From Candidatus Shapirobacteria bacterium (lineage in GTDB: Bacteria > Patescibacteriota > Microgenomatia > UBA12405): a DNA stretch of 64,000 nucleotides. The translations under genes were made by a program, and so were the position numbers. Of the stretch, positions 10,815-62,909 are shown piece after piece. Position 1 is the first letter of the stretch, and every line of letters begins with the position of its first letter. Below the pieces are notes generated by a model. The model was not told where the DNA came from and did no database searches. It saw only the letters and a program-made list of their open reading frames with translations. The stretch spans positions 12,187 through 76,186 of the forward strand of contig JAUYJS010000003.1 in the NCBI GenBank assembly GCA_030698565.1, written 5' to 3'.

Positions 10815-11487
10815 TTCCGAAATCATTTTGGAATTAAAAGATGTTGTCAAATCATATAATTCCGGCGGAACTGTTTTTACAGCGATTAAAGGCGCCAACC
10901 TTCAAATCAAAAAAGGAGAGTTTGTTTCTATTACTGGTCCTTCCGGTTCCGGCAAATCCACTTTAATGCACATCATCGGCCTTTTGGACAACCCCACCTC
11001 TGGTCAAGTCCTTCTTGAAGGCAAGGATATTTCCAAACTTCAAGAACACCAATTGGCTAATTTAAGGAATAAAACATTAGGTTTCGTTTTTCAACAATTC
11101 AATTTATTGCCCAAAACTTCAGCTCTAGAAAATGTCACCTTACCCTTAATTTATTCTGATATTCCTAGCTCAAAAAGAAATGATTTAGGCATAGAAATGT
11201 TAACTAAGGTAAATTTATTAGACAAATTAAAAAATACTCCTGCTCAACTTTCCGGTGGTCAACAACAAAGAGTTGCCATTGCTAGGGCTTTAATTAACAA
11301 TCCCAAAATTATTTTAGCCGACGAGCCAACCGGCAATCTTGACAGTAAATCTGGTGACGAGATCATGGAATTTTTCCATCATTTAAACAAAGACGAAGGT
11401 AGAACCATTGTTTTTGTTACTCACGATCCTGATTTAGCCAAACAAGCCACCCGAATGATTGTTATTAAAGATGGCCGCATATGCTAA
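10786..11487 (+). CDS. ABC transporter ATP-binding protein (MacB/LolD-type)
   Basis: It has Walker A GPSGSGKST, the signature LSGGQQQRVAIARAL and Walker B ILADEPTGNLD. Confidence 0.85.
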   Translation: MTKLSSNKNNSEIILELKDVVKSYNSGGTVFTAIKGANLQIKKGEFVSITGPSGSGKSTLMHIIGLLDNPTSGQVLLEGKDISKLQEHQLANLRNKTLGFVFQQFNLLPKTSALENVTLPLIYSDIPSSKRNDLGIEMLTKVNLLDKLKNTPAQLSGGQQQRVAIARALINNPKIILADEPTGNLDSKSGDEIMEFFHHLNKDEGRTIVFVTHDPDLAKQATRMIVIKDGRIC

Positions 11488-15707: not shown

Positions 15708-16478
15708 ATGCTTTCAAAATTTATTAAACAATTAAGATTAAAAAATAATTTTAATCAATCATTTGTTGCCGAGCACATTAGTGTCTCTCGTCCAACCTAC
15801 CTCGAAATTGAAAAAGGAACCAGAGACTTAACTATTACCGAAGCTCAAAAACTAGCCGATCTTTTTGGTCTATCTCTTGATTCTCTTTTGAACCAAAACG
15901 AAATTGTTACGGTCGTTGACGATCAAAAAACTGTCATTAAAAAACACGACGATATCCGTATTTCTATCCCCCAAAATAATTTAGAAAAATTTAAACAAGT
16001 ATTACTTTATATTCTCACCAAGGTCGGTTCTAAACCAAATATTGGCGAAACAGCAATTTATAAATTGCTTTATTTTATCGATTTTGATTATTACGAAAAA
16101 TACGAAGAGCAGTTAATAGGCGCCAAATATATCCGCAATAACTACGGCCCGACGCCGGTACATTTTAAGACAATTGTCGAAAAAATGATCAAAGATGGTC
16201 AGCTTGAATCTGTTTCCAGTAAATATTTTCAATATCCTCAAAAAAAATATTTACCAAAAGTATCAGTGAATTTATCAAAATTATCCGGTCAAGAAATCGC
16301 CCACATTGACGATGTTTTAGCTCGGTTGTCTGGTAAAAGCGCCAAAGAATTAACCGAATATTCTCATACCGACAATCCTTGGATGACAAAAAAATCAGGT
16401 GAGGTTTTAGATTATGAATCTGTTTTTTATCGTGATGTCGCTCATTCAGTGCGGGACAATAGCCATGATCAATTATGA
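15708..16478 (+). CDS. XRE-family HTH protein with a C-terminal DUF4065 (Panacea) domain, a putative antitoxin
   Basis: The N-terminal HTH is QSFVAEHISVSRPTYLEIEKG. The C-terminal segment KLLYFIDFDYYEKYEEQLIGAKYIRNNYGP resembles DUF4065. Confidence 0.55.
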   Translation: MLSKFIKQLRLKNNFNQSFVAEHISVSRPTYLEIEKGTRDLTITEAQKLADLFGLSLDSLLNQNEIVTVVDDQKTVIKKHDDIRISIPQNNLEKFKQVLLYILTKVGSKPNIGETAIYKLLYFIDFDYYEKYEEQLIGAKYIRNNYGPTPVHFKTIVEKMIKDGQLESVSSKYFQYPQKKYLPKVSVNLSKLSGQEIAHIDDVLARLSGKSAKELTEYSHTDNPWMTKKSGEVLDYESVFYRDVAHSVRDNSHDQL

Positions 16479-22731: not shown

Positions 22732-23664
22732 TTATTTGTTACCACTATGAAATTTATCATGAACTTCCCGCAATCTAGCATCAGTCACATGGGTATATAT
22801 TTGAGTAGTCGCAATATTTTTATGTCCCAATATTTCTTGAACTGACCTTAAATCGGCACCGGAACGGAGTAGGTCAGTTGCCATAGAATGACGTAAAGTA
22901 TGTGGTGTAGCCAGCACTGGTAATTTTGCCTGCGTCACATATTTTTTTACCAATCTTTGCACTGATCTGGCTGTTAATCTAACCTTGTCGTCGTCAGCCG
23001 TAATTTCATTCTTTCCAGAGTAGTGAATAAAAAGTGGTTTATATTTATCCATTCGATTTTTTAAATACCGATCCAAATATTCCGCCGCTTGTTTTGAAAT
23101 AAAAACGATTCTAGATTTACCGCCTTTACCAATAATTCCAAACTCTCGAGTCTTTAAATTAATTTGATCACAGTTCAAAAAAACAAGTTCAGATACTCTC
23201 AAACCAGTAGAAAACAAAAGCTCCAAAATCACCCTATCTCTCAACCCAGCCTTTTCTGACAATAATGGTTGGTTAAGCAGTCTTTTCATTTGATCTTCAT
23301 CCAAAAACTTTAAGGAGTGATCTTTATTTTTCGGTACTTCTAGTTTTTCCGGCTGTAAAGTTTTAATGTCATTTTTTATTAACCATTTCAAAAAAGATCT
23401 CAATGCAATTATGTAATATCCCTGGGTCACTATTTTCATATCTCCATTAGTTCCTTTTTGCCTTGATAAAAAAAGTCTGAACCGCCTAACCGTATCGACA
23501 TTAATGTTTTCTATTTTTACTGTATTTTGATTTTCATCCGACAAAAATTTTACTAATACATTTAAATAATGTTCGTAATTTCTAATTGTTAATCTGGAAC
23601 AATTTTTTTCAATCTCCAAATGTTCTAAAAATTTTCTGATCAAATTATTTAAATCATCATTCAC
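22732..23664 (-). CDS. xerC: Tyrosine site-specific recombinase (XerC/XerD family)
   Basis: It has a C-terminal R...HTLRHSMATDLLRSGADLRSVQEILGH...Y catalytic motif. Confidence 0.85.
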   Translation of the reverse strand: MNDDLNNLIRKFLEHLEIEKNCSRLTIRNYEHYLNVLVKFLSDENQNTVKIENINVDTVRRFRLFLSRQKGTNGDMKIVTQGYYIIALRSFLKWLIKNDIKTLQPEKLEVPKNKDHSLKFLDEDQMKRLLNQPLLSEKAGLRDRVILELLFSTGLRVSELVFLNCDQINLKTREFGIIGKGGKSRIVFISKQAAEYLDRYLKNRMDKYKPLFIHYSGKNEITADDDKVRLTARSVQRLVKKYVTQAKLPVLATPHTLRHSMATDLLRSGADLRSVQEILGHKNIATTQIYTHVTDARLREVHDKFHSGNK

Positions 23665-33315: not shown

Positions 33316-34389
33316 TTAATATTTATTTATTATTTTTTTGTATCGTGTCGTTGATCCTTGACCAATCCGTTCTATCATCTTTAATTCCAACAGCTTATTT
33401 ATCACCTGATTAATAGTCGGTCTGGGTACACCTGTTTTCTGCGATATTTCTCTCGGTGTAGTTTGGTCAACATTTTTCATATAATTCCACACGATAAGTT
33501 GTTGTGGCGAAAGTATTGTTTCAATGTTTGTTTGAGTAAGTAATTGAATGGCCATTTGAGATTGTGTCAGTAATATATCTAAAAAGAAATTAACCCAAGG
33601 TGACATATCAATGTGTTTAGTTCTTAAAGTCTTTTGACTTTTACGAAGGGCTAAATAATATTCTGGTTTATTATCTTCAATCAACTTTTCGTGTGATACA
33701 TAAGGCATATAGGCATAACCAAACTTAAGTAATAGAAGATTGGTTAATATTCTTGATAATCTGCCGTTTCCATCCTCAAACGGATGGATATTGAGAAATT
33801 CGACAAGAAAATTAGCGATCACTAGAAGTGGATGATATTTATTTTGTTCTAAGGCATTTTTAGTCCAATCTACAAGTTCAGACATTTCCTTGGGTGTTAA
33901 AAAGGCCTTGGTGGTTTCAAAAAGAACCTCGATTGGTTTACCTTTATCATCTATCATTACTACTGTATTTTCTTTTTTCTTATATTCACCCCGATGTAAG
34001 ACATCTTTTCCAACATATTTTAATAACTCTTTATGAAAATGTTTAATGATATTTTCATTAAATACCAATGACTCCCAAGAATTAAAGACATTTTGAAGTA
34101 ACTCATAATAACCCTGAACTTCCTGTTCATCTCGATTACTAAATTTTTGAATAGATATACCCCGAATCATTTTTTCAATCTCTTCATCAGACAATTTTGA
34201 TCCTTCAATACGAGTGGAAGCCCCAGTTGAAGTGACTAATACTGATTGTTTTAATCGACCTAAAATTTGAGGACTAAGTTTAGTACTCCCTTCCCAGTTT
34301 CCCTTAATAGACTCAATTTGGGTAATTTTTAACCAAATGTCAGAAGAAATATTTTCTAATCGAAAATCGAATTTATTATTCATATACAT
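33316..34389 (-). CDS. Fic/DOC family protein (second paralog) with a C-terminal HTH-like domain
   Basis: It carries the Fic motif HPFEDGNGRLSRIL. It lies directly 3' of tRNA-His. Confidence 0.8.
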   Translation of the reverse strand: MYMNNKFDFRLENISSDIWLKITQIESIKGNWEGSTKLSPQILGRLKQSVLVTSTGASTRIEGSKLSDEEIEKMIRGISIQKFSNRDEQEVQGYYELLQNVFNSWESLVFNENIIKHFHKELLKYVGKDVLHRGEYKKKENTVVMIDDKGKPIEVLFETTKAFLTPKEMSELVDWTKNALEQNKYHPLLVIANFLVEFLNIHPFEDGNGRLSRILTNLLLLKFGYAYMPYVSHEKLIEDNKPEYYLALRKSQKTLRTKHIDMSPWVNFFLDILLTQSQMAIQLLTQTNIETILSPQQLIVWNYMKNVDQTTPREISQKTGVPRPTINQVINKLLELKMIERIGQGSTTRYKKIINKY

Positions 34390-35333: not shown

Positions 35334-36581
35334 ATGAATTCAACTAAAATTAAGCCTCAAACCCTCAAAGGCTTCCGTGATTTTTTACCGGAAACTATGA
35401 TTGTCAGAAATTATGTCAAAAATATTTTAATAGAAGTTTTTGAAACTTTTGGTTTTCAACCAGTTGAGACTCCCACATTAGAATATGCCAGTACATTAAT
35501 GGGTAAATACGGCGAAGAAGCCGATAAGCTAGTTTATTCTTTTAAGGACGCCGGAGATCGACAAGTCGGTCTTAGATACGATTTAACTGTTCCCACTGCA
35601 AAAGTTTTATCCATTTATCAAAATCAAATTTCACTACCTTTTAAGCGTTATCAAATACAACCAGTGTATCGAGCCGATAAACCTCAAAGGGGTCGTTACC
35701 GCGAATTCCTTCAATGCGATGTTGATATTTTTGGACCAGAATCCCCTATTAATGATGCCGAAATAATTGCCCTCACTTATACCATTTTAGAAAAATTAAA
35801 TTTCAAAAAATATTCCATTAGAATAAATAGCCGCCAAGTTCTTTATCAAATTTTAGACAATGCCGGTATTAAAAATAACCAAAAATCTGCTTTGCAAAGT
35901 CTCGATAAATACCAAAAAATTGGCGAAGATGGAGTAAAAAATGATCTCATATCTAAAGATATCGATTCTACTAAAATCGATAAATTATTTGACTATATCA
36001 AAAAGGCTCAGCCAGATGATTATTTAAAATCAGTTTTTGAAAAAATTAAAGAATTTGGAGTCCCAAAATCGGCTTATATTTTTGATCCAACCATGATTCG
36101 AGGTCTGGATTATTACACCAGTACTATTTTTGAAACTTACGTCACTGAACCAAAAATGGGTTCTATTACTGGTGGTGGTCGTTATGACAATTTAATTAGT
36201 TCCCTGGGTGGTCCTCAAACTCCAGCCGTTGGTACAACAATCGGTCTAGATAGAATTGTTGATTGTATTTTAGAACTTAATTTATTACCTGAGTTAAACA
36301 AAACTACTACCAAAGTTTTGGTTGCTAATTTTGGAGTGGAAACCGAAAAAGAATCAATTAATCTTTTAAATCAACTCCGCAACAACGATATTGCCTCTAC
36401 TTTTTATCCTACTCCAGACAAAATCGGTAAACAAATTAAATACGCTGATTCTTTGAGTATTCCTTATGTTGCCATGATCGGTACTGACGAGATTAAAAAT
36501 AGTTTAATTACTCTAAAAAATCTTAAAACTACGGAACAAAAATTAATCTCGCTAGAAGAATTATTAAAATTTCTGCTATAA
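35334..36581 (+). CDS. hisS: Histidyl-tRNA synthetase
   Basis: It has class II motifs: [17 protein letters not shown] and GGGRYDNL. Confidence 0.9.
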
Positions 36582-36589
36582 TATCCCCT

Positions 36590-36832
36590 ATGAAACAAGG
36601 AATTCATCCAAAATATTTTGATAATTGTCAAGTCACCTGCACTTGTGGTAATACTTTTACCACTGGGTCAACAATTGAAAAAATAGAAGTTGATGTCTGC
36701 TCTCAATGCCATCCTTTCTTTACTGGACAACAAAAATTTGTCGATATCAAAGGTAGAATTGATAAATTTAATGAAAAATTAGCCAAAGGTAAAGTCTACG
36801 CCGCGGCTAAAAAAACAAAAAAATCTAATTAG
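36590..36832 (+). CDS. rpmE: 50S ribosomal protein L31
   Basis: It has MKQGIHPKY and a CxxC...CxxC zinc ribbon. Confidence 0.85.
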
Positions 36833-36847
36833 CTACTAAACACGTCA

Positions 36848-37609
36848 TTGCGATCTCGATTTATCGAGAGAAGCAATCTCTCTATGCCAACACTCAACCC
36901 TAACATCGCTATTCTCGAATTTTATCCCGGTCCCGGTGGCCAAGAGGCCACTATTTGGGCTGGTGATCTAATAAATATGTATACCCGCTATGCTACTAAA
37001 GTCGGCTGGAAAGTAAGTTTAATTGATGAACATATTATGAAAATAACCGGGTTTGATGTTTTCAATCAGTTAAAACATGAAACCGGTACTCATCGGGTCC
37101 AAAGAATCCCTATAACCGAAAAACGCGGCCGAATTCAAACTTCCACCGCTTCTATTGCCATCATGCCTCAAATCGATTCCAAAGAAGTTAATTTTAGGAT
37201 GGAAGATGTTACCATCACTGCTTGTCGAGCTGGTGGCAATGGCGGCCAAAATGTTAATAAGGTTTCTACTGCCGTTCACTTAGTTCATAAACCAACTGGT
37301 TTAATGTTTGATGTTAGAACCGAACGTTCCCAGCAACAAAATCGAGAAATTGCCATTGATCTTCTTAAGAATAAACTTTGGCAAATAGAAGAAGAAAAGC
37401 GCCAATCCGAAGTCTCTTCTGGTCGTTCCAATATTAGTCAATCAACCCGCGCCGACAAAATCCGTACTTACAATTATCCCAGAAATCAGGTCAAAGACCA
37501 CCGCATTGACGTATCATTCAACAATTTAGATAAAATCATGCAAGGCGAGTTAGATGATCTTTTATTAGAATTAACTATTCTCCCTTCTCCATCTTCACAC
37601 TCAAACTAA
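36848..37609 (+). CDS. prfA: Class I peptide chain release factor, RF1-type (PxT-like PIT motif, GGQ), lacking N-terminal domain 1
   Basis: It has [25 protein letters not shown] and [17 protein letters not shown]. The likely ATG is at 36884. Only about 15 nt separate it from rpmE, so there is no room for domain 1. Confidence 0.7.
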
Positions 37610-38609
37610 TTTCCTGTTTATTTCTCCAAACTTTAAAGTTCACGTCGTCTCCTATTTTCATTTTATTTATGAATGCGACCAACGAACCATCTTTTTCATC
37701 ACTTATTTTTTTATCATTTATTTCAGTAATAATATCATCCATCTTAATGCCACCTTTATCAGCTGAGCTGCCAGATACCACATTCTGAACATATGCTCCC
37801 TGTGGCACATCGTTCAACAAAGCTGCTTGTTTAGAAATTAATTTATAAGCTACCCCCAAAAACGCCCTATCAAATTCCCCTGTCGTCTTAAAATTATCAA
37901 TTGATTCTTTAACCAAGCTAATCGGCAAGGCAAAACCAATATTCTGACCACTTTGAGACGTGGCCACATTTACCCCGATTACGTTTCCGGAAGAATCCAA
38001 CAATGGTCCACCTGAATTACCGGGATTTATAGCCGCATCAGTCTGAATTACATTATCTAGTTTTTCTAATCCTTCGATCGGTGAACCAGCTTCTATTCCA
38101 CGACCCAAGCCCGATATCACCCCAGTGGTCACTGTTGACCTAAATTCTCCCAATGCTGTTCCAATAGCAATTACTGTTTGCCCTACTTTTAATTTATCGG
38201 AATTACCTAGTTTTATTGGAGTTAAATTATTTTTGTTTACTTTTAATATGGCTAAATCAGCCACAGGGTCACGGTAAATTGCCTCGACATTTTCCACGTC
38301 ATCTTTACCAATTACCACTTTATATTTTGCCGTTGTATCAACCACCACATGCTTATTGGTTACAATCAACCCATCAGCGCTAATAATAAACCCAGTACCA
38401 ATATCCTGTTCAATTTTTTGAGTGCTATCACTAAATGTGTTTGATTTGCTTATTGATACTGTAACTACACTAGACGAAGCCTGTTCTACTACTCTTGTTA
38501 TAACCGTTTCTTCATTTACTACTACTTCCTTATTAGGTATTCTCATTACCACCCCAGTCGACACCACTATTATCATCCCCAAGAACAGACCTATTAAAAG
38601 ATTCTTCAT
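37575..38609 (-). CDS. htrA: HtrA/DegP-family serine protease with a PDZ domain
   Basis: [17 protein letters not shown] contains the catalytic His. [18 protein letters not shown] contains the catalytic Ser. There is a C-terminal PDZ domain. Confidence 0.8.
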
Positions 38610-49714: not shown

Positions 49715-51382
49715 TTAATACAACCGATCACTTCTTTGTGATAACGCTACTTTAAAAAGATTCATATCATTAAATGATAATTTACAATTACCATCCAAAT
49801 CACCTGGCATATTATCGCCCGCATTAGCATCCGGAGTACTGCCAATTTTATTCTTTAAGTAAACAAAATCATTTCCATTTATTAAGCCATCCTGACCTGC
49901 TTCTGCTCCTGCCCTAGCTACATCTCCGGAAGAGATTGGTACACCAGAAAAGTCCACGGCTGCGCTGGCAGTATCATTAGTCAAAGTTAATTCACCCACA
50001 TATTTATCATAAAAAGCACTTTGGTTATTTATTCCAAATTTTTCCTGTAAATGTTTTGGCCCTTTTATAAATAGAGAAACATTTTGAGTAAAAGGAAAAT
50101 CTGCCAATCGCAAACTACCCTTGAATACAGCCAAATCACCTTTAGAAGTACCATCTTTAGTAACCACCACACCATCATAAGTTTTTGTCACCCCAGCATT
50201 ATTCATCGCAATTACTTTTACTGGCCAATTTACAGCACAAGCCGAACTAGCAGTTTTAACCCCGCCAAAGGTGACTTTAAAATTTACGAAAGGGAATGAA
50301 GCGTTCGCTGGATCATATATAGAATATGCCTGAGTTTTCGATGCAGTAAAATTAAAAATCACGTTTGGTCCCACGGCTGATGATCTAGCTTGATCAAAAC
50401 TAATATTGCCTGATCCCATACTGGTTCCCATAAAATAAATTATCCCCAATCTAATCGCATCTCCAACTGGCAAATCAGCTTCGGCCAAATCGGATTTAAC
50501 AGACAATTCTAAGCAATTATTACCAACATCTCTTGCATATTCAATTCTAGAAAAGTTAGGATCTAACCAGAATTTATAAAATCGTGGAGATAAATTATTT
50601 CCATAACACACAGTGACCTTGGCTGAATTAACTTTATTTCTATTAGTCTTTAACCATACATTTTGTCCGAATTCAATTCCTACATCATCAACAACGATAC
50701 TATCACTACTATCAAAACCTTCACGACCAAAAGACAAAGAACCATTAACAGTGGTAGTAGTAGGTGCCACAGGATTACTTGCAGGCGGGTTGTTGTTGGC
50801 GACAGGAGCAGCCTCTGAAATCTTATAACTCGTTCCGTTAATCGAGGCCATAGTAATTATTTTATCTAGTTTATCTGGATTCACACCAGTTACTTCAGTT
50901 TTTTCAGAAATCAAATCTATTGCGCCAGTACTTACTTTTAAGGCTTTAAATTGAACAGTAACAGCATTAAATACTGTACTAACATTTGAATTACTAGGAT
51001 TTGTATTGAGTAAAGTAATATCTAAACATTTTTTATTAGCGTAATCGATCGGACTATCAGGAATTAAAACGGTATCAAAAGAAGGATCTGTAATAATTGC
51101 TTGTCCTTGACCTTTTGCATAAGACAAATTAGCAGGATCATAACAAAGATAGGTACTCAAAGCGGTCACTTTAGCATTTTTTGGGTCAACTTTAATAACA
51201 ACATTTACATACCCACCCACGGTTCCAGGAATCTCAGTTTCAGGAGCTAACCACATTTTCCCGTCAGAGATAAATGCCGCTCCCCTTCTAGTATCCTGGT
51301 TTTTTTTAACTAAATTAATCGAAACAGCCAACCCTAAGGCTATAATAAAAGTAGTTATTAAAATTGTTTTTTTACTTTTCAT
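49715..51382 (-). CDS. Secreted multidomain protein with a cohesin-like N-terminal domain and C-terminal dockerin-like repeats
   Basis: It has a signal peptide and VNVVIKVDPKNAKVTALSTYLCYDPANLSY. The C-terminus carries GQDGLINGNDFVYL and GDLDGNCKLSFNDMNLF. Confidence 0.45.
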   Translation of the reverse strand: MKSKKTILITTFIIALGLAVSINLVKKNQDTRRGAAFISDGKMWLAPETEIPGTVGGYVNVVIKVDPKNAKVTALSTYLCYDPANLSYAKGQGQAIITDPSFDTVLIPDSPIDYANKKCLDITLLNTNPSNSNVSTVFNAVTVQFKALKVSTGAIDLISEKTEVTGVNPDKLDKIITMASINGTSYKISEAAPVANNNPPASNPVAPTTTTVNGSLSFGREGFDSSDSIVVDDVGIEFGQNVWLKTNRNKVNSAKVTVCYGNNLSPRFYKFWLDPNFSRIEYARDVGNNCLELSVKSDLAEADLPVGDAIRLGIIYFMGTSMGSGNISFDQARSSAVGPNVIFNFTASKTQAYSIYDPANASFPFVNFKVTFGGVKTASSACAVNWPVKVIAMNNAGVTKTYDGVVVTKDGTSKGDLAVFKGSLRLADFPFTQNVSLFIKGPKHLQEKFGINNQSAFYDKYVGELTLTNDTASAAVDFSGVPISSGDVARAGAEAGQDGLINGNDFVYLKNKIGSTPDANAGDNMPGDLDGNCKLSFNDMNLFKVALSQRSDRLY

Positions 51383-51384
51383 TA

Positions 51385-53244
51385 TTATTTTAATTTATTT
51401 TCTAACCAGATAGCAAAATCGACTAAACTTACATACCCATCACAATTAGCATCAGCTTGGTAATTATTCTTAATAACCTTTCGTCCATCTCCCGTATATT
51501 CACCTACCCAAATATCAAAATCAGACTTATCAGCTTTTGCACTTGTACAACTAAAACGACCACTTTTTCTCTTAATATTGTCAGAATCGTTAGCGCAAGG
51601 GGTGCAAACTGCCGCTACCGGATGATCTAACTTACAACCATTCTCACTTGTGTAACAATCTTTATCGCCTCCACAATTTTTACAATTTCCACCAACGGCT
51701 AATTCACTACAGACCGTCCCTGTATACACCCATCTTTTGTCAGTCAGTGCCACCGAACTACTCGTTCCTGTACAATTTATGGTTCCTGATTGATTAGTTT
51801 GATCAGTTTCATTAATTTTGCAACATACATAATTTTTATTACTACAAGTACCTGTCACTTTAGATCCTTCAGCAGCACATATTGGCGCACCCATACAAAT
51901 AGATCCAGACGGGCAACTGTCTGCTACTGGTGCTACCGGATGATCTAACTTACAACCATTCTCAGTGGTGTAACAATCTTTATCGCCACCACAATTTTTA
52001 CAATTTCCACCAACGGCTAATTCACTACAGACCGTCCCTGTATACACCCATCTTTTGTCAGTCAGTGCCACCGAACTACTCGTTCCTGTACAATTTATTG
52101 CCGCTACTGTTGCAACACAAACACCACTCGCATTTCTAGTTAGAGGTGCCACACATTTATCTACACAATCCCCAGTTGTTCCAGTTAACTGTTTAAAATC
52201 TTTCCCTTTATTAGTACACACTTCCGGTGCTAATTGACTATTACAAACCCGGCTACCACCACTACCACTACATTCACATTTGTATGGTCCTCCATCACTT
52301 GAAAATTGTCCACAAGCCGTTCCACCAAAACACTGAGTGCAATCTGCGGCGGTTGCGGTCGTCTGCCCCACTCCATTCTGATTGTCTGTAGGACAAACTT
52401 GCGGCTTTGCTGAGCAAGTAAATCTCACCCCTTCTTCAACATCTACAGTGTCATTTGGGTTATTACATTTTGGACAATATTTTTCTACAAGCTCTACTAA
52501 CTTCTTCTGATAACTATCAACATAAATCTTACATTGCGATTCTGCGTCATAACATGTAAATACACCACATGGACCAGTGTCACTAACAGAAGTCTGCTCA
52601 TAGCTAATACAACTTTTATCATCTTTACTATACCAATAGGTTTTTCCTACTCTGTTACCAACATCAGTTGGAGCCACACATTTCCCACCAGTACAAGTCA
52701 AACCAACTTGGCAAGTAGTTTGAGATAACCCAGCTGTACAGGCTTCATTTTCAGCCGCTGGATGAGCTTGTTGACAACCACTTAATGCTGTATAGCACTC
52801 AACTTTACTTTTATCATTAGGATAGCAACCTAAACAATTACTAACCGGTCCACTAGTACATACATTATTAATAACTTGAAATCTCGTTTCAGTTAGCGGA
52901 ATTTTTGGATTATCACAAGTTGTTGATGCTGGTGGTTGTACCACCACACCGCCTGCTGCTGGTTGTGCTTCTGGAGTACAGTTCCTTCTCGTCTCTGCTG
53001 TTACATCCCTTTCTTGACAACCAGCAGGTAAAATTGATTTTATTTGCCTTGTTTGAAAACCAGAAGGATAACAAATTCCCCATTGATCAAAAAAAGTATA
53101 GTCGCAAGCTACTGTCGCCTTGCTTCTATTCTCCTGATTATTCTGCACTAATTTTGTCATCGCCGGCAAGGCAACCGCCATCAACAACAAGCCAACCATT
53201 ATAGGAATTTGAGCGAAACCAGCAATTTTTTTAAATTTAGCCAT
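51385..53244 (-). CDS. Secreted Cys-rich repeat protein with a dockerin-like C-terminus; it contains a recent 106-codon tandem duplication
   Basis: It has a signal peptide and more than 60 Cys. The module INCTGTSSSVALTDKRWVYTGTVCSELAVGGNCKNCGGDKDCYT.ENGCKLDHPVA occurs twice and is nearly identical at the DNA level. The C-terminus reads DANCDGYVSLVDFAIWLENKL. Confidence 0.4.
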   Translation of the reverse strand: MAKFKKIAGFAQIPIMVGLLLMAVALPAMTKLVQNNQENRSKATVACDYTFFDQWGICYPSGFQTRQIKSILPAGCQERDVTAETRRNCTPEAQPAAGGVVVQPPASTTCDNPKIPLTETRFQVINNVCTSGPVSNCLGCYPNDKSKVECYTALSGCQQAHPAAENEACTAGLSQTTCQVGLTCTGGKCVAPTDVGNRVGKTYWYSKDDKSCISYEQTSVSDTGPCGVFTCYDAESQCKIYVDSYQKKLVELVEKYCPKCNNPNDTVDVEEGVRFTCSAKPQVCPTDNQNGVGQTTATAADCTQCFGGTACGQFSSDGGPYKCECSGSGGSRVCNSQLAPEVCTNKGKDFKQLTGTTGDCVDKCVAPLTRNASGVCVATVAAINCTGTSSSVALTDKRWVYTGTVCSELAVGGNCKNCGGDKDCYTTENGCKLDHPVAPVADSCPSGSICMGAPICAAEGSKVTGTCSNKNYVCCKINETDQTNQSGTINCTGTSSSVALTDKRWVYTGTVCSELAVGGNCKNCGGDKDCYTSENGCKLDHPVAAVCTPCANDSDNIKRKSGRFSCTSAKADKSDFDIWVGEYTGDGRKVIKNNYQADANCDGYVSLVDFAIWLENKLK

Positions 53245-53363: not shown

Positions 53364-54452
53364 TTATTTTCTAAATATTCTCATCACATCTCCAGCCGTT
53401 ATCAACAATATCAAACTCAAAAGAATCAGCATTCCAACATTATTCACCGCCATTTCAACTTTTTGGTTAGCTCTTTTTCTAAAAATCATTTCATAAATCA
53501 CAAAAATAATTCTGCCACCATCCAATGCCGGAAACGGCAATATATTCACTACCGCCAAGTTAACCGACACAACTCCAAAAAAATGAACCAAAGCCAACAT
53601 TCCTTGGCTTTTTTTGATACTACTTGTCGCCTCAAACATTCCAATCGGACCACTCACATCTTTGGGTATCTGACCCATTAATAATTTTTGGACCATACTG
53701 CCAACCCCACCACCTATAATTTTTCCCCAAAAAAAGGCTTCTTTAAACCCAGCCCCAATACCTTTATAAAACTGATACCAAGGCACTTTTACCATTTCTG
53801 TATTGGAAATTGCTACCCCCATACCCCCCTCGCCCTGCGGTGGATTCTCCCTTATACCTATATTAATTTGTTGATCTTGATTGTTTCTTTTTATATCCAA
53901 AGACACAGTCTTACCTTTAAATTTAGCTACCTCAGAAGTTAATTCACTTGGGTTAGTAACCACTTTAGAATCCACTTTATATATCTGGTCATCTTCTTTT
54001 AGTCCAGCTATCTCAGCCGGAGAATTTTGGGCTATTCCCACAATTTTTACCCTATCTGTTTCCTGGGGAACCCCTAATATTGCATAAACAAAACTAAAAA
54101 TAACAATTGCCAGCACCAAATTCATCAACACTCCGCCCAATACTATTATTAATTTTTGCCATGGATTTTTATTATTAAAAGCAATACCACCTTTACCACC
54201 ACCGTCCTCTCCGTACAATCTACAAAATCCACCGATTGGTAGTAAATTTAAACTAAAGGTGGTCTTGCCAATTTTCTTACCAAAAATTTTCGGTGGTAAT
54301 CCCAAACCAAACTCTTCTACCCTAACCCCAGTTTTAATGGCTGCAATAAAATGCCCAAATTCATGAACCAAAACTAAAATTGACAGAGCAACAATAAAAA
54401 TTAAAATATCCATATAATTATCCCCTAACTTCCACCTCTTTTTTCTTAGCAA
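53364..54452 (-). CDS. rseP: RseP / site-2 protease (M50 zinc metalloprotease with PDZ)
   Basis: It has HEFGH in TM1, a PDZ domain, and a C-terminal TM segment with LDGG. Confidence 0.85.
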   Translation of the reverse strand: MLRKKRWKLGDNYMDILIFIVALSILVLVHEFGHFIAAIKTGVRVEEFGLGLPPKIFGKKIGKTTFSLNLLPIGGFCRLYGEDGGGKGGIAFNNKNPWQKLIIVLGGVLMNLVLAIVIFSFVYAILGVPQETDRVKIVGIAQNSPAEIAGLKEDDQIYKVDSKVVTNPSELTSEVAKFKGKTVSLDIKRNNQDQQINIGIRENPPQGEGGMGVAISNTEMVKVPWYQFYKGIGAGFKEAFFWGKIIGGGVGSMVQKLLMGQIPKDVSGPIGMFEATSSIKKSQGMLALVHFFGVVSVNLAVVNILPFPALDGGRIIFVIYEMIFRKRANQKVEMAVNNVGMLILLSLILLITAGDVMRIFRK

Positions 54453-54969
54453 TTTCTTCTAATTTACCAATATACTGATCAGTTGTTTTTTGTAATTCTA
54501 CTTCGTCTCTCTTAAATTCGTCTTCAGAAATAGTTTTATCCTGTTTTGCATCTTGCAAACCTTTTCTAAAATCTGCCCTAGCATCGCGAGTCATTACTCT
54601 AGCCGCCTCTAATTTTCTACCCAAAAGCTTAATATATTCTTCCCTTTGTTCCGACGTTAACATCGGCAAATTCATTCTAATTAATTGCCCATCGATAGCC
54701 GGTGTCAACCCCACATTTGCCGCCGCAATTCCATTAGAAATTTCTCGTATTGCCGCCTCATCCCATGGTTGAAAAGTCAATGATCGAACATCGGGCACAC
54801 CAATCGAGCCAAGTTCTACCAATTTCATTTTTTGACCACCATACACACTCACCACTACATTTTCAATCAAACCCGGAGTCGCCCGTCCAGTCCGAATTGA
54901 AGCAATATCAGTAGAGAATAATTCCACAATCTTGTCCATTCTTTGCTTCACTTTTTGAAAATCAATCAT
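54418..54969 (-). CDS. frr: Ribosome recycling factor
   Basis: The N-terminus is MIDFQKVKQRMDKIVELFSTDIASIRTGRATP. Confidence 0.9.
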   Translation of the reverse strand: MIDFQKVKQRMDKIVELFSTDIASIRTGRATPGLIENVVVSVYGGQKMKLVELGSIGVPDVRSLTFQPWDEAAIREISNGIAAANVGLTPAIDGQLIRMNLPMLTSEQREEYIKLLGRKLEAARVMTRDARADFRKGLQDAKQDKTISEDEFKRDEVELQKTTDQYIGKLEEIAKKKEVEVRG

Positions 54970-54996: not shown

Positions 54997-55683
54997 TACG
55001 GGCGATTCATGAATCGCCCCTACATTTAAAATTTTTCGGATTATTTCTATCTCTTTCCCACATTATCGGATTCATTCTTATATATTCTCTAATTTTTTTT
55101 AACTCAATTTCGTTTCTAACGATATGTTCATAATAATTCCGTTGCCAAACAAACATTCCAATCTCTCTAGATGCATTCATTTTCAAATATCCGATAATTT
55201 TTGACAACATCGATCTCTTCGGTAGGGGCGATTCATGAATCGCCCTGTTTAATTTCCTAATTGATCCATTTATCAATTTGGGCGATTCATGAATCGCCCC
55301 TACATTTTTTATTATTAAAATTAAATGAATATGATTGGGCATTATCTGAAAAATATCCATTACCAAATCAAATCTTGCCTCTAATTTTATTAACCAATTT
55401 TCAATTATTAAACCATTATTATTCGAGATCATCTTGCCATTAATAATGGCACCAAACATTTGCCTTCTTTCAAATGAACATATGGTTATAAAATAATATC
55501 CTCCGCCTGAATAATTCCATTTTTTTAACCGGATTGACCTACGGTGATAATCCATATGTAATAATTATTACATATTATTATTTGTACGGGCGATTCATGA
55601 ATCGCCCCTACCCGTCATCCCGAATTTATTTCGGGATCTAAATCCCGCATTCCTTTTTTGGGCGATTCATGAATCGCCCCTAC
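54997..55683. repeat. Five copies of REP family A surrounding and inside RAYT gene 1
   Basis: The copies are at 54997-55023, 55222-55247, 55279-55303, 55585-55612 and 55659-55683. Each contains GGGCGATTCATGAATCGCCC. Confidence 0.8.
55007..55555 (-). CDS. REP-associated tyrosine transposase (RAYT, IS200/IS605-like HUH), copy 1, with REP-A sequences translated in frame
   Basis: It has YYFITICSFERRQMFG (motif I), MPNHIHLIL (HUH) and WQRNYYEHIVRNEIELKKIREYIRMNP (catalytic Tyr region). GAIHESP occurs twice, and the C-terminal CRGDS is encoded by REP-A copies. Confidence 0.75.
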   Translation of the reverse strand: MDYHRRSIRLKKWNYSGGGYYFITICSFERRQMFGAIINGKMISNNNGLIIENWLIKLEARFDLVMDIFQIMPNHIHLILIIKNVGAIHESPKLINGSIRKLNRAIHESPLPKRSMLSKIIGYLKMNASREIGMFVWQRNYYEHIVRNEIELKKIREYIRMNPIMWERDRNNPKNFKCRGDS

Positions 55684-56155: not shown

Positions 56156-57076
56156 TTATTTTACTCCAGCCGCTTTAATAGCTCTTCCAATTTCTTCAAT
56201 AATCAGATTGACACTCTTTACACTATCGTCATTAGTTGGAATAGCAAAATCAACTTTCAAAGGATTACTATCAGTATCCACCATAGCTACGGTCTTGATA
56301 CCCTTACCAATAGCTTCTTTGACGGCTGTTTTTTCAAATCCAGCATCAACTACAAATAAAATATCAAAAAGTTTATCTAAAGTGCTCAAGCCGCCAACAA
56401 TTTTTTCTAATCTAATAATTTCCTTGCTCATCTCCAAAAGTTCTTTTTTAGTATTTTCAGTAAACTTTCCTTTCGCTATACCATCTTTTAGATCGTTCAA
56501 TTTTTTGATATTTTTCTTGATCTGTTCCCAATTGGAAATAGTACCACCCAACCATCTGTCGGTAACATAAGGCACACCAGCATCCATAGCTACTCTTCGA
56601 ACTACTTCTCTAGCTTGTCTCTTTGTACCAACCAATACTATTTGTTTACCATTTCTCTTAGCATTGTAAATAAAATTACATGCTCTTTCTAAATTAGATA
56701 AAGTCTTGGTTAAATCTAAAATTTCAATTCCATCTTTTTTGATATAAATATAGTCACGGAATTTAGGATGAGTTTTAGAAACCTTATGACCCAAATGGCA
56801 ACCAGCCGCCAATAAATCTTTTAAACCAATTGTTAAATTATATTTTTTATCAATTTTAGTCTCTTCACCAGTTTTTTTTACTTCTTTTACTTCGCTCGAA
56901 ACTTCTGCAGCCTTTGCCAACGCGATCTTTTCTGCCTGCACCTTTTCATTTAATTTCTTGATATTTTCAGCTGTAACATTACTTTGATTCTTAGCTTTAA
57001 CTACCAAAGCTTTCTTCACCATCGATTTACCGGTTCGATTAACGGTTTTTACTATTACTTTCTTTTTTTCTGCCAT
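56156..57076 (-). CDS. rpsB: 30S ribosomal protein S2 with a Lys-rich N-terminal extension
   Basis: It has LLAAGCHLGHKVSKTHPKF and a conserved core. Confidence 0.9.
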   Translation of the reverse strand: MAEKKKVIVKTVNRTGKSMVKKALVVKAKNQSNVTAENIKKLNEKVQAEKIALAKAAEVSSEVKEVKKTGEETKIDKKYNLTIGLKDLLAAGCHLGHKVSKTHPKFRDYIYIKKDGIEILDLTKTLSNLERACNFIYNAKRNGKQIVLVGTKRQAREVVRRVAMDAGVPYVTDRWLGGTISNWEQIKKNIKKLNDLKDGIAKGKFTENTKKELLEMSKEIIRLEKIVGGLSTLDKLFDILFVVDAGFEKTAVKEAIGKGIKTVAMVDTDSNPLKVDFAIPTNDDSVKSVNLIIEEIGRAIKAAGVK

Positions 57077-58023: not shown

Positions 58024-60204
58024 ATGTCCGGCGAAAATCTAAGCATTTTGGAAGTTAGACTACCACAAAACAACGAGCACACTTTGGAATCGATGTCCTC
58101 TCTTCTGTCAAATTTCACTCAGTTTTCATCTCCCAGCCTTTTACAAAACCTTTTTAATCGTAGAAAAACCCTAGGTTCCCTAGAAATTGTCCTAACCAAA
58201 GGCCAAATCCATTTCTTTTTTGCCTCGGACAAAGAAAACTCAGAATTCTTTCGCTCTCAAATTTTAGCCCAATACCCCACTGCCATTATTCGAGAAAGCG
58301 AAGATTATTTCTCCAATTATATCGATAATTCCCAAGACAAAAATATTTTTTTTAATCAATTAGGCAATTCCCGATCTTACAGTTACCCTCTAAAAACAGC
58401 CAAAGATTTCAAAGAAACTGATCCTTTAAATTCAGTATTAGCTCCACTATCTCACTCCACCAAACCCGATGATTTTTTTGTTTTCCAAATAATTTTAGCT
58501 TCGCCTCCTAAAAATTGGCAAAGCGGAATTATGAATACAATTCAAAATGGAATTTTAGTTGATCGACAAAAAAATCTTCACCAAGCCCATCCAGATCGGG
58601 CAATTTTCGAACAAAAAATTCAATATCCTGGTTTGGCCGCCCAAATAAATTTATTTTCCAATAGTGCCGCTCTTTTATCCTCTGTCTCTTCATCATTCGG
58701 AATTTACACTTCACCTCGCGGAAATTTTATAAAGACCTATATTCCCGGTCATTTTTCCAAAAGCAAACTAAAAAAATCTATTCTCTCTCGTAAATTCGAA
58801 ACTAAGCTAAAAAATCAAATTTTAAACACAGACGAATTAGCTGCCCTTTGGCATTTTCCCAACACAATTACCAAACTTCCCAATATTGCTTGGGGCAAAA
58901 AATTATATTCTGATCCTCCTGAAAATTTGCCAACAGCTAGTAGCTTAACTCCAGAAGAAAAAAATAAAGTTACTTTTTTTGCCAAGACAGAATTTAGAAA
59001 TAAAGACGCTATTTTCGGTATTAAAGAAGGCGAAGATCGCCGCCGCCATACCTATATTATCGGTAAATCTGGTACCGGAAAAACTACCTTAATCGCCAAC
59101 ATGGCCATTGACGATATCCGCAAAGGCCGAGGTGTAGCCGTTATTGATCCTCACGGCGACTTGTGCAACACCATCCTTGACTATATTCCTAGCCATAGAA
59201 TTAACGATTGTTGTTATTTCAACCCAGCCGATCCAGATTACGTCTATCCATTAAATGTTTTGGAAGCTCAAAACGAATCTCAAAAAGAATTAGTCGCCTC
59301 CGGTGTTATTTCTATTTTCAAAAAACTTTATGGCAATGTTTCTTGGGGTCCTCGACTCGAACACATTTTAAGAAATACACTTCTTACCTTGGTCAATGTT
59401 CCTAACTCTAATTTGGTCAATGTCGTTGAAATTTTAACCAACAAAAGTTTTCGTGAAAAAGTTGTCAGTCAATTAAATAATCAGACTTTAATCAATTTTT
59501 GGCACAATGAATTCGACAGAATGGATCCAAAATTTCAACAGGAATCCGTTTCTCCTATTTTAAATAAAGTTGGTCAATTTATTTCCTCAACTAACATAAG
59601 AAATACCATAGCCCACTCCAAATCTAAAATCAGGATTCAAGACATAATGGATCAAAAAAAGATTTTAATTGCTGATTTATCAACTGGTAAATTGGGCGAA
59701 GACAACTCCGCACTTTTGGGTGCCATGTTGATTACCCAAATTCAGTTGTCTGCCATGAATCGAGTCTTCCAAACAGCCGACGAACGTTCTGATTTTTATC
59801 TTTATGTCGATGAATTTCAAAGTTTTGCCACAGAAGCCTTTATAAAAATTCTTTCCGAAGCCCGCAAATTTAAATTAAATTTAATTGTCGCCAACCAATA
59901 CATGGCTCAACTTGATCGGACAATTCAAGATGCTATTTTGGGCAACGTTGGATCAATTATTTCTTTCGTTGTGGGCAATCAAGACGCTTTTGTTCTCCAA
60001 AAAGAATTTGGGCCGGAATTTCCAGCTGATGATTTAGTTAAAATCGGTCGCTATCAAGTTATCTGCAAACTTTCCATTGATTCAGAAACCACTCAACCAT
60101 TTTATGCTACCACCCTTCCACCTTTGTCTTGTAAAAACCAACAACGCGAAAAACTTATTCATACCTCGCAAGAACGATGGGGCAAGCGAAAAGACAAGGC
60201 CTAA
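58024..60204 (+). CDS. FtsK/HerA/TraD-superfamily P-loop ATPase (DUF87 / type IV secretion coupling-protein-like)
   Basis: It has Walker A HTYIIGKSGTGKTT, the HerA/TrwB-like motif VIDPHGDL and Walker B YLYVDEFQSF, in 726 aa, with no obvious TM segments. Confidence 0.5.
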   Translation: MSGENLSILEVRLPQNNEHTLESMSSLLSNFTQFSSPSLLQNLFNRRKTLGSLEIVLTKGQIHFFFASDKENSEFFRSQILAQYPTAIIRESEDYFSNYIDNSQDKNIFFNQLGNSRSYSYPLKTAKDFKETDPLNSVLAPLSHSTKPDDFFVFQIILASPPKNWQSGIMNTIQNGILVDRQKNLHQAHPDRAIFEQKIQYPGLAAQINLFSNSAALLSSVSSSFGIYTSPRGNFIKTYIPGHFSKSKLKKSILSRKFETKLKNQILNTDELAALWHFPNTITKLPNIAWGKKLYSDPPENLPTASSLTPEEKNKVTFFAKTEFRNKDAIFGIKEGEDRRRHTYIIGKSGTGKTTLIANMAIDDIRKGRGVAVIDPHGDLCNTILDYIPSHRINDCCYFNPADPDYVYPLNVLEAQNESQKELVASGVISIFKKLYGNVSWGPRLEHILRNTLLTLVNVPNSNLVNVVEILTNKSFREKVVSQLNNQTLINFWHNEFDRMDPKFQQESVSPILNKVGQFISSTNIRNTIAHSKSKIRIQDIMDQKKILIADLSTGKLGEDNSALLGAMLITQIQLSAMNRVFQTADERSDFYLYVDEFQSFATEAFIKILSEARKFKLNLIVANQYMAQLDRTIQDAILGNVGSIISFVVGNQDAFVLQKEFGPEFPADDLVKIGRYQVICKLSIDSETTQPFYATTLPPLSCKNQQREKLIHTSQERWGKRKDKA

Positions 60205-60208
60205 TTAT

Positions 60209-62215
60209 TTAAGGCTTCTTCCACCCCGCCCATTTACAGTCCGGATATCTGAAACAACCAAAAAATTTTCTGCCAGTTTTTGTTCTCTTAACCACCCCTT
60301 CAGCTCCACATTCCGGACAATTAAATCCAGCCAGCTCTTTAAAAGGCGCTGTATATTTACATTCCGGAAATCGGCCACAGGACACAAATTTCCCAAACCG
60401 GCCTACCCGAATCACCAATTCGCCTTCTTTGCATTCAGGACATTTTTCATTTAATTTTTCAGTTTCCACCCTGACTCTTTCAGAGTCATTTTCAGCCAAC
60501 TTTACGTCTTTTTCAAATTTATTCCAAAAATTTTTCATCATCACTTTCCATTTCATTTTGCCCAAAGAAATTTTATCCAAATTTTCTTCCATCCCAGCCG
60601 TAAAAGGCAACGATAACACATCGGGAAAATTCTTAACTAAAAATTCATTTGTCGCCACCCCTAAAGCCGTTGGCAAAAATCGTCCTTCTTCTTTTTCTAC
60701 ATATTGCCTCGCCTGAATCGTCGAAATAATCGGAGCATAAGTACTCGGTCTACCAATCCCCTGTTTTTCCAAAGAAGCTACTAAGCTAGCATCGCTATAT
60801 CTTGGTGGTGGATTAGTTTCTACTTCTTCTTTATCAATTCTGCTTTGCAGAATTTTTTCGCCTTCTTTCAAAATTGGCAAAATTTGATCCTCGTGTTTTT
60901 CCTCGGTAATTTTCAAAAATCCATCGAATAACATCCTTACTCCGTTAGTCTCAAAATCACCGTTTCTATTGCTTAATTTAATAACCGTTTTTTCCATTCT
61001 AGCCCCGGCCGCTTGAGTGGCGACAGCTCTTTTCCAAATCATTTCATACAATTTATTTTCTCGTAAATCTCCTTCAATATGAGTTATTTCTACCTTGCTT
61101 GGTCTAATCGCCTCATGAGCTTCCTGAGCATTCTTTGCCGTATTTTTATAAAGCCTCACTTTAGCCGACACATATTCATTGCCATAATGATTGCCGATGA
61201 ATTTCCTAAATTCACCTATAGCTTTATCTGACAAATAAACCGAGTCGGTTCTATGATAAGTAATTAAACCATTTTCATAAAGCTTCTGAGCCACACTCAT
61301 AGTCTGTTTACCTGACCACCCAAATTTTCTCGCTGCCGCTTGTTGTAACTTAGAAGTCATAAATGCCGGCAATGGTGACCTGTGAGTTTCTCTACCAATT
61401 ACTTTGTCTACCGTAAATTCTTTATCTAAATTAGAAATAAATTGGGACACTTCATCTTCTTTTCCAAAAATCGATTTGCTAAAAGTGTAATCACCATCAA
61501 ATAATTTTATTTTTTGAGTTTGGAAAAACTTCTTCTTATCTACCGCAATTAAATCAGCTTCAAAATTATTTCCACTTTTGTTTAATTTTGCTAAAACCTT
61601 AAAATATTTTTCTTTTTTAAAGGCCTGAATTTCTTTTTCTCTTTCACAAATGAGCCTAACCGCTACAGATTGAACTCGTCCAGCCGACAAACCTCTTCTA
61701 ACTTTTCGCCACAATACCGGCGATAAACTATAGCCTACTACCCTATCCAAAACTCTTCTACCCTGTTGAGCATTTACCATATCCATATCAATATCTCGAC
61801 TATTTTTTATTGCCTCTTCGATCGCATCTTTAGTAATTTCATGAAAAGTTACCCGGGAAATTAGACTGCTGTCAATTTTGTTTTTATCGCTCTTTTTATA
61901 AACTGAATTTTCCATCAACCACTTCACATGCCAAGAAATTGCCTCCCCTTCACGATCAGGATCTGTAGCCAGAAATATTTTTTTAGCGGTTCTTGCCGAT
62001 CTTATTATTTCATCAACCACTTTCTTTTTTTTAGGATCAACCACATATTCCACCTCAAAGTCATTTTTCATATCCACGGCCATTTTGTTGCCAGGTAAAT
62101 CCCTCAAATGACCAACAGTAGCGATCACCTCAAAGTCATTCCCTAAATATTTTCCAATTGTTCTAGCTTTGGTCGGTGATTCTACTATTAATAAGTTTTT
62201 AGACATATTAACCAT
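60209..62215 (-). CDS. topA: DNA topoisomerase I
   Basis: It has Toprim (LLIVESPTKA), a catalytic Tyr domain and C-terminal C4 zinc ribbons (CPECKEGE...C..C). Confidence 0.9.
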   Translation of the reverse strand: MVNMSKNLLIVESPTKARTIGKYLGNDFEVIATVGHLRDLPGNKMAVDMKNDFEVEYVVDPKKKKVVDEIIRSARTAKKIFLATDPDREGEAISWHVKWLMENSVYKKSDKNKIDSSLISRVTFHEITKDAIEEAIKNSRDIDMDMVNAQQGRRVLDRVVGYSLSPVLWRKVRRGLSAGRVQSVAVRLICEREKEIQAFKKEKYFKVLAKLNKSGNNFEADLIAVDKKKFFQTQKIKLFDGDYTFSKSIFGKEDEVSQFISNLDKEFTVDKVIGRETHRSPLPAFMTSKLQQAAARKFGWSGKQTMSVAQKLYENGLITYHRTDSVYLSDKAIGEFRKFIGNHYGNEYVSAKVRLYKNTAKNAQEAHEAIRPSKVEITHIEGDLRENKLYEMIWKRAVATQAAGARMEKTVIKLSNRNGDFETNGVRMLFDGFLKITEEKHEDQILPILKEGEKILQSRIDKEEVETNPPPRYSDASLVASLEKQGIGRPSTYAPIISTIQARQYVEKEEGRFLPTALGVATNEFLVKNFPDVLSLPFTAGMEENLDKISLGKMKWKVMMKNFWNKFEKDVKLAENDSERVRVETEKLNEKCPECKEGELVIRVGRFGKFVSCGRFPECKYTAPFKELAGFNCPECGAEGVVKRTKTGRKFFGCFRYPDCKWAGWKKP

Positions 62216-62252: not shown

Positions 62253-62909
62253 TTATAATTTTAAGTTTTTTAGTATATCATCCGCATTCATTACCAATAA
62301 TCCGCCATTCTTAATTAAAAAATTAGGTGTAAAACTATTTTCATCACTAATTCGTCCAGGCACCGCCATAACTTCTCGCCCTTGTTCCAACGCCATTTTT
62401 GCCGTCACCAACGACCCACTTCTTTGACTCCCTTCTACCACTAAAACCCCTAAACTCATTCCAGAGATTATCCTGTTCCTCCTCAAAAAATTTACATTTT
62501 GAATCAAAGTATTATCCTTATATTCTGACACAATTAATCCACCATTTTTCAAAATATTTTGATAAATATATTCGTTGGATTTAGGTGAAATAATATTAAC
62601 TCCCGATGCCAAAACAGCTATTGTTTTACCTTTATTTTCGAGACAAATTTTATGCGCTTCTGCATCAATTCCCAATGCCATTCCCGACACAATCACCCAA
62701 TTATTTCGGACCAATTCTGGTACCAAATTCCTCATCATACTTTGGCCATACCAGCTCATCTGTCTACTTCCTACCACGGCTATTTTTTTATTTTCCTTTA
62801 ATAATTCGATGTTCCCCAAACAAAATAATTTACCAGGACAATCCGGTATCTCTCTTAATAATTCCGGAAATCTTTTATCTTTAATTCCAATTTCAACCGT
62901 TTGCAACAT
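62253..62909 (-). CDS. dprA: DNA processing protein DprA (Rossmann-fold core only)
   Basis: It has IAVVGSRQMSWYG...IVSGMALGIDAEAH...GGLIVSEY. Confidence 0.85.
   Translation of the reverse strand: MLQTVEIGIKDKRFPELLREIPDCPGKLFCLGNIELLKENKKIAVVGSRQMSWYGQSMMRNLVPELVRNNWVIVSGMALGIDAEAHKICLENKGKTIAVLASGVNIISPKSNEYIYQNILKNGGLIVSEYKDNTLIQNVNFLRRNRIISGMSLGVLVVEGSQRSGSLVTAKMALEQGREVMAVPGRISDENSFTPNFLIKNGGLLVMNADDILKNLKL

Follow-up and report, generated by a model that had tools for sequence, protein, structure and literature searches.

The gene at 36884..37609 (+) of the window, as we call the whole 64,000-nucleotide stretch analysed here, is probably the prfA of its own lineage, Candidatus Shapirobacteria, and its predicted product is a working, UAA/UAG-specific release factor 1 (RF1) reduced to domains 2, 3 and 4. 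The 241-aa protein was assigned from Pfam, NCBIfam and PDB matches, and its gene ends with a TAA stop at 37607-37609. The best reading of the sequence is that domain 1 was lost by a deletion lying exactly at the boundary between domains 1 and 2. An earlier, sequence-only reading had recognised the core of a class I release factor, and PGPGGQEA, PIT and GGQ are indeed all read directly in the sequence. Between the two explanations which that reading had offered, a minimal RF1 and a PrfH-like paralogue, the first is favoured by the position of the gene in the prfA slot, the truncation throughout the clade, purifying selection, the conservation of six of seven decoding residues and an RF1 score far above that for PrfH.

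Homology searches matched the protein to the RF1 family over part of the family's length. Pfam matches covered only positions 100-194 of the 194 positions of the PCRF profile, plus the entire RF-1 (GGQ) domain, and the NCBIfam RF1 models aligned at model positions 106-338 of 347 (NF001859, 276.1 bits) and 114-345 of 361 (TIGR00019, 275.4 bits). Both scores missed the RF1 equivalog cut-offs of 400 and 423.25, respectively, a shortfall that can mainly be attributed to the unaligned domain 1 part of the models. Across families, the protein scored 276 bits with RF1, 196 with RF2, 66 with PrfH and 44 with ArfB. The best match among solved structures was T. maritima RF1 (residues 87-320), the E. coli and T. 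thermophilus RF1 structures aligned from residues 111 and 105, and PDB searches gave E-values of ~1e-62 for RF1 compared to ~1e-41 for RF2. Identity to full-length RF1s was 44-50%. Since the Pfam and NCBIfam alignments begin at about model position 106 and the structure matches at residues 87-111, the ~100 N-terminal residues that make up domain 1 are absent. The proposal of an RF1-type class I factor without domain 1 was thus upheld by alignment to the RF1, RF2 and PrfH families, in which RF1 was best from ~position 106, and the ORF is not full length relative to the RF1 family (model positions ~106-338 covered). The four-domain architecture of RF1 was not found, as domain 1 is absent and the DNA upstream has no coding capacity for it. 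A public protein with 100% identity (P0001) carries the title 'peptide chain release factor-like protein [Candidatus Shapirobacteria bacterium]'.

The ORF finder listed the gene at 36848..37609 (+) as a 253-aa frame with a TTG start. The true start of the 241-aa frame is almost certainly the ATG at 36884, because this is the start chosen in public gene calls and the one that lines up with the start codons of ~65 orthologues, and because the 12 residues on the TTG side are not conserved. The 12-codon in-frame extension from the TTG (36848..36883, +) is probably not translated; in the orthologues, an in-frame stop occurs 0-25 codons before the aligned ATG or GTG start. Directly 5' of prfA lies rpmE (36590..36832, +; Pfam Ribosomal_L31, E = 2.8e-30), which encodes the 80-aa ribosomal protein L31 and ends with TAG. 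The gene had rightly been described as following rpmE immediately, but the gap of ~15 nt given for it did not stand, as the rpmE stop (36832) and the likely ATG are 51 nt apart. Read from the sequence, this spacer (36833..36883) is AT-rich, shows no Shine-Dalgarno sequence and contains a 6-bp inverted repeat (36854-36859 / 36864-36869) that could form a hairpin. The upstream regions of the 18 orthologues inspected likewise had no Shine-Dalgarno-like sequence in the rpmE-prfA spacer, and none that was conserved. In several relatives, the spacer consists of short AT-rich direct repeats. An upstream extension or a frameshifted domain 1 was ruled out because the DNA 5' of the gene is taken up by rpmE and because the relatives (~65 genomes) have stops 0-25 codons before the start, in agreement with the earlier remark that no in-frame domain 1 is visible there.

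The hisS gene for histidyl-tRNA synthetase (35334..36581, +), identified by Pfam families on an identical public contig and by synteny, is the first gene of a hisS-rpmE-prfA block. On the other side of prfA is a convergent gene for an HtrA-type serine protease (37575..38609, -; from the ORF list, with Trypsin_2 and PDZ on the public contig), whose position is kept in most of the relatives sampled. The 3' ends of the two genes overlap by 35 nt (37575-37609) in the window, whereas in most relatives they are 6-20 nt apart. The C-terminal tail of the window RF1 deviates from the clade consensus.

The truncation was found throughout the clade. The 120 best homologues were all 211-251 aa long, and all but one of them, P0072 with 211 aa, measured 227-251 aa. 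Scanning one genome for each bacterial species yielded 80 loci, and in ~65 of these (58-88% identity) an ATG or GTG start aligned to residue 1 and a stop lay 0-25 codons upstream. Because all sampled clade members (~65 species-level genomes) have the short form in common, the comparison of orthologues shows a truncation that, to judge from these sequences, is fixed across Candidatus Shapirobacteria. Compared pairwise with 12 clade members, the window gene gave dN/dS values of 0.05-0.19, with dS saturated (>1). The gene is under strong purifying selection. The same values, together with the same architecture in independent assemblies and ~65 species, and catalytic and decoding motifs that are invariant apart from the position of the stacking His, make it barely conceivable that the gene is an artefact or is decaying, that is, a mis-assembled, frameshifted or 5'-truncated pseudogene, although the sequence is MAG-derived and one relative (OLB22, L082) appears frameshifted.

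Several apparent exceptions were set aside. In one relative (L047), a 104-aa 'extension' arises from a run of 100 N bases (2860-2959) between rpmE and prfA, which makes the two genes look like one open frame of 349 codons; this is a masking or scaffolding artefact and not a fusion. The top matches in a library of 50%-identity representatives (P0121, 477 aa; P0125, 481 aa) carry a perfect internal tandem duplication of ~115-125 residues, and these duplications are most likely assembly artefacts. Matches called RF1 relatives at ~38% identity call for caution, as this level in the locus scan marks RF2 and not RF1: two such loci (L080, L081), from Dojkabacteria and from another bacterium, are actually RF2 genes with an SPF motif and RQTSF.

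Gene order and phylogeny both connected the short gene with full-length prfA. The order hisS-rpmE-RF1, followed by convergent htrA, was conserved throughout the truncated clade, and the same slot is occupied by full-length prfA in Cerribacteria (L066), other Microgenomates (L068-L071) and Saccharibacteria (L073). The rpmE-prfA order also occurs in Planctomycetota. In neighbour-joining trees built on the common core of RF1 sequences, the Shapirobacteria RF1s were monophyletic inside the Microgenomates RF1s (bootstrap 98-100). This nested position and the hisS-rpmE-prfA(-htrA) synteny point to orthology with full-length prfA. The neighbours in the tree already have a short domain 1, with 74-95 residues before GxGGxE compared to ~115-120 in typical RF1.

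This shortening bears on the idea of a split RF1, in which another locus would encode domain 1 as a small protein of its own that associates in trans. Domain 1 is a mobile bundle of helices with a loose attachment (PMC1586002) and small unannotated ORFs are plentiful in these genomes, both of which would suit a split, but the shortened domain 1 of the sister lineages suggests decay and not fission. Moreover, tblastn with the domain 1 of sister lineages, a search of limited sensitivity given how poorly this domain is conserved, returned no homologue from the window or from related loci totalling ~1.2 Mb, and no ORF of ~100 aa was conserved beside prfA. We therefore regard a split factor as very unlikely.

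A specialised paralogue of the PrfH or rescue type, with the canonical full-length prfA elsewhere in the genome, also appears unlikely, if less so. ArfB is a protein of ~140 aa that consists of the GGQ domain plus a basic C-terminal tail. The window protein has GGQ domain 3 in common with the rescue factors ArfB, ICT1 and C12orf65, but in these the codon-recognition domains 2 and 4 are missing and a C-terminal tail probes the empty mRNA channel, whereas the PCRF decoding domain is present in the window protein, which scored 43.9 bits with the ArfB model (cut-off 100). PrfH, or RF-H (TIGR03072; 7SA4, 9MOR), is the closer parallel, as it too is a homologue of class I release factors that has GGQ but by nature no domain 1 (PMC1586002). 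Beyond this shared lack, the scores under the RF1 equivalog cut-offs and the unusual substitutions at conserved RF1 positions would fit a paralogue. However, the PrfH equivalog model gave 65.8 bits against a cut-off of 166.65, from the GGQ domain alone (residues 111-210), and the decoding set with PxT is typical of RF1, while the decoding region of PrfH is divergent. Gene context also differs. PrfH, which acts in ribosome rescue or repair, is always found behind an rtcB-like gene, directly downstream of it in the prfH operon (PMC1586002), but no rtcB partner accompanies the gene here, and its upstream neighbour, in the window and in the examined relatives with upstream sequence, is rpmE, as in the canonical slot of the full-length orthologues. 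On these scores and this context, membership of PrfH or ArfB was dismissed, and the PrfH-like paralogue that the sequence-only reading had kept as an alternative failed the tests for PrfH. Neither the 64-kb window nor the ±10 kb around the gene in ~80 relatives contained a second release factor-like sequence, which also argues against a paralogue.

The residues with which RF1 reads stop codons are largely retained, as would be expected of a functional RF1. In E. coli RF1, the decoding residues are G120, E123, Q185, R186, T190, H197 and T198 (PMC3974865), and by alignment their equivalents in the window protein are G18, E21, Q73, R74, T78, Q85 and T86. Six of these seven (G18, E21, Q73, R74, T78 and T86) and GGQ were invariant among 121 clade sequences. 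The PGPGGQEA motif (36926..36949, +) forms the tip of helix alpha5 with the first-base readers G18 and E21, the counterparts of E. coli Gly120 and Glu123 (alignment; PMC3974865); both were kept in 120 of the 120 clade sequences with a residue at these positions, one row being gapped. QRIPIT (37100..37117, +) includes Gln73 and Arg74, the counterparts of E. coli Gln185 and Arg186, together with the RF1 'anticodon' tripeptide P76-I77-T78 of the PxT type (PIT at 37109-37117), with Q73, R74, P76 and T78 invariant in the 121 sequences and x being V, I, E, A, L, T or S. The catalytic GGQ motif (residues 120-122; 37241..37249, +) was invariant in the clade.

The exception is Gln85 (37136..37138, +), which takes the place of the codon-stacking His (E. 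coli His197, T. thermophilus His193) and turns RIHTS into RIQTS. Gln was found here in 97 of the 121 clade sequences and His in the other 24; of 69 full-length RF1 representatives, 66 have His and 3 have Gln. The change is not unique, as Gln or Met is common at this position in RF2 (27/101, in a biased sample) and rare in RF1; Gln in place of the codon-stacking His, with RQTSF for RHTSF, was observed in Microgenomates RF2 (L091, L145, L152, L195, L088, L180, L109). In E. coli RF1, the His stacks on the second base of the stop codon, and the H197A mutant binds >100-fold more weakly, with dissociation at 175 s-1 and 5-fold slower peptide release (PMC3974865). With the stacking His replaced, full activity of the window factor should not be assumed.

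A second set of changes, Q200R, R202Q and T204K relative to the canonical FPQxRVTDHR, lies in a domain 4 segment just past the switch loop (37475..37504, +). R200 and Q202 were present in 121 of 121 clade sequences and K204 in 120 of 121, while full-length RF1s have Q (62/69), R (69/69) and T (66/69) at the same sites. The switch loop of the crown group also carries S -> A and E -> D. The basal truncated members (L061, L062) retain RIHTS and QNR(V/I)TDHR, and so do truncated RF1s of other Microgenomates (L063, L064, L067, P0122), except that L064 has RNSVKDLR for the second of these motifs. Since basal and other truncated members keep the canonical residues, domain 1 was lost first and the substitutions followed. 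The crown-group changes (His -> Gln, the switch-loop S -> A and E -> D, and Q200R/R202Q/T204K) may tune how a factor that RF3 no longer recycles binds and is released. Compared to canonical RF1 (PrfA; TIGR00019 / NF001859; 1RQ0, 4V63, 5J30), the window protein thus has the same domains 2, 3 and 4, PxT, GGQ and rpmE-prfA order, the same alpha5-tip Gly and Glu and the equivalents of Gln185, Arg186 and Thr198, but it lacks domain 1 (~100 aa), has Gln for His197 and an altered FPQxRVTDHR, and falls below the equivalog cut-offs. An AlphaFold (AF2) model with pLDDT 79 resembled ribosome-bound, open RF1 (TM ~0.69) more than the closed crystal forms (TM 0.54-0.57).

Among class I factors, TAG is read by RF1 only. 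TAG ends 10 of 65 long ORFs in the window, rpmE among them, and accounted for 19% of the stops of 937 ORFs in 58 clade loci, so an RF1 activity is clearly needed in the clade. The earlier remark that TGA acts as a stop in the window also proved sound: TGA ends 9 of the 65 long ORFs, in six cases as part of a 4-nt ATGA overlap with the gene that follows, and 12% of the 937 clade ORFs. From this use of TGA, it is reasonable that an RF2 activity must exist. Pfam annotation of ~50 window ORFs gave no RF2, RF3 or PrmC.

We scanned metagenome contigs for GGQNVNKV followed by W-G at the RF2 spacing and recovered ~100 RF2 genes with the SPF motif. RF2 of the Microgenomates type was 335-361 aa long and encoded in a single ORF without a +1 frameshift, with a complete domain 1, and protein searches and cluster look-ups showed that these RF2s belong to Roizmanbacteria, Beckwithbacteria and other Microgenomates. 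The 240 best RF2 matches were all full length but for one entry of 286 aa. On these sequences, RF2 retains domain 1 in the related lineages. None of the scanned RF2 genes was assignable to Shapirobacteria, and their flanks (serS..secA..LytR_C-prfB-ftsE-ftsX) had no orthologues in the window. An ABC ATPase of the window (10786-11487) was considered as a prfB-linked FtsE and rejected, as it is a member of a MacAB/HlyD-type transporter and a paralogue only. With no RF2 gene tied to Shapirobacteria in the contig scan, and with a decoding-site His -> Gln change that is unusual for RF1, one might suppose a minimal factor of broadened specificity that also reads UGA and replaces RF2. This is a remote prospect given the invariance of the PxT threonine and of Gln73/Thr86, the residues that limit RF1 to UAA and UAG, and given that all related Microgenomates sampled have a normal RF2.

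Taken as a UAA/UAG-specific RF1, the three-domain factor would enter the A site and use domain 2/4 to read the stop codon, and domain 3 would swing its GGQ into the peptidyl-transferase centre as in canonical RF1. Domain 1 touches L11's N-terminal domain and RF3 (PMC3677378), and as domain 1 makes the contacts with the L11/L7-L12 stalk and RF3, neither would be touched by the short factor. It would then have to leave the ribosome spontaneously or during recycling by RRF and EF-G, and we infer that the absent stalk contact and the weaker stacking residue could help it to leave without RF3. UGA would presumably be read by a separate RF2 encoded elsewhere. Work on E. coli makes such a factor plausible: deletion of domain 1 leaves codon specificity and in vitro release intact and abolishes stimulation by RF3, and truncated RF1 is functional in vivo (Mora 2003; Vestergaard 2005; both summarised in PMC1586002). 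In addition, prfC is missing from small genomes (PMC1586002). In E. coli, dissociation of RF1 depends on RF3, while RF2 leaves spontaneously (PMC5995542), and an RF2 that keeps domain 1, as in the related lineages, would fit this asymmetry in RF3 dependence.

It is possible, though on balance doubtful, that the loss of domain 1 was an adaptive simplification of termination reached repeatedly by CPR bacteria and not neutral trimming. As E. coli RF1, unlike RF2, depends on RF3 to leave the ribosome, a lineage that lacks RF3 would come under pressure to loosen its RF1; the stalk- and RF3-binding domain would be deleted, codon stacking would then be weakened (His -> Gln) and the switch-loop region remodelled, and the outcome would be a self-recycling three-domain RF1. 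Truncated RF1s directly after rpmE were also found in a UBA1400-type group of Microgenomates (L063, L064, L067; ~9914-10675) and in Niyogibacteria (L072, 9938-10714, with P0126). These separate truncated lineages keep RIHTS, and most keep QxRVTDHR (L064 has RNSVKDLR). Since the Niyogibacteria pair groups with full-length sequences elsewhere in the tree, domain 1 was lost at least twice independently. A 232-aa RF2 with SPF and GGQ and without domain 1 was observed on Hainich groundwater contigs of up to 63 kb (L154, 3425-4129 (-); L205, 10001-10699), in the normal prfB-ftsE-ftsX context and with stops immediately before its ATG. The N-terminus of this RF2, MNSNPNITTV, is similar to that of the truncated RF1.

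Full-text literature searches, of incomplete coverage and so amounting to absence of evidence, returned no description of an RF1 without domain 1 in CPR, Patescibacteria or Microgenomates. A survey of release-factor evolution (PMC6514570) and a review of Patescibacteria (PMC11665869) make no mention of a truncated RF1, and the terms 'release factor', 'RF1' and 'RF3' are absent from an analysis of CPR ribosomes (Tsurumaki 2022, PMC9297842). The latter reported a reduced translation apparatus in CPR/Patescibacteria, with losses of uL30, bL9, segments of uL1 and rRNA helices. The organisms and the peripheral trimming are the same as here, but that study covers ribosomal proteins and rRNA and our case is a release factor. 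Engineered truncated RF1 and RF2 of E. coli (Mora et al. 2003; Vestergaard et al. 2005; via PMC1586002) share the three-domain architecture. They are laboratory constructs in a host containing RF3, whereas the Shapirobacteria form is natural, fixed and lineage-wide, with additional co-evolved substitutions. What appears to be new is therefore a natural, lineage-wide three-domain RF1, the proteins themselves being already deposited publicly with unspecific names.

In nature, domain 1, with its contacts to RF3 and the ribosomal stalk, seems to be dispensable. It had been called non-essential from engineered truncations; here a whole bacterial lineage did the experiment, apparently over a long time (dS > 1). 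A natural minimal RF1 would offer a system for studying RF3-independent termination, factor recycling, the role of the L11/L7-L12 stalk and compensatory changes. Because such proteins fail the curated RF1 models, they are annotated by NCBI only as 'release factor-like'. Pipelines for genome completeness or phylogenomics may also score a truncated RF1 as an absent single-copy marker. TIGR00019, one of these models, is a member of the bac120 marker set.

The window, which has a G+C content of 34.5%, is rich in housekeeping genes, among them ligA, gyrBA, dnaX, dnaB, cysS, topA, pth, frr and rpsB. In the longest rpsB ORF (56156-57076, -), taken from the first start codon available, the Pfam domain of ribosomal protein S2 starts only at residue 88, which reflects either an N-terminal extension or a mis-placed start. 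One IS200-like (Y1 transposase) ORF lies between the rpsB region and frr, where the ORFs at 55007-55555 and 54418-54969 (both -) were noted. Two adjacent large ORFs, of 555 aa (49715-51382, -) and 619 aa (51385-53244, -), had no Pfam match at E <= 1e-5. Amid the housekeeping genes are genes of defence or mobile type: an HTH-SocA/Panacea antitoxin-like gene (15708-16478, +), two Fic-domain genes (3408-4541, +; 33316-34389, -), a GIY-YIG nuclease (3031-3321, +), a DUF559 endonuclease (4559-4996, -) and a tyrosine recombinase (22732-23664, -). A TrwB/VirD4-like coupling ATPase gene (58024-60204, +) lies beside topA (60209-62215, -) and dprA (62253-62909, -), and a PilB-type ATPase gene (468-2210, -) is located at the opposite end of the window; these genes are related to competence or type IV secretion and are typical of CPR.
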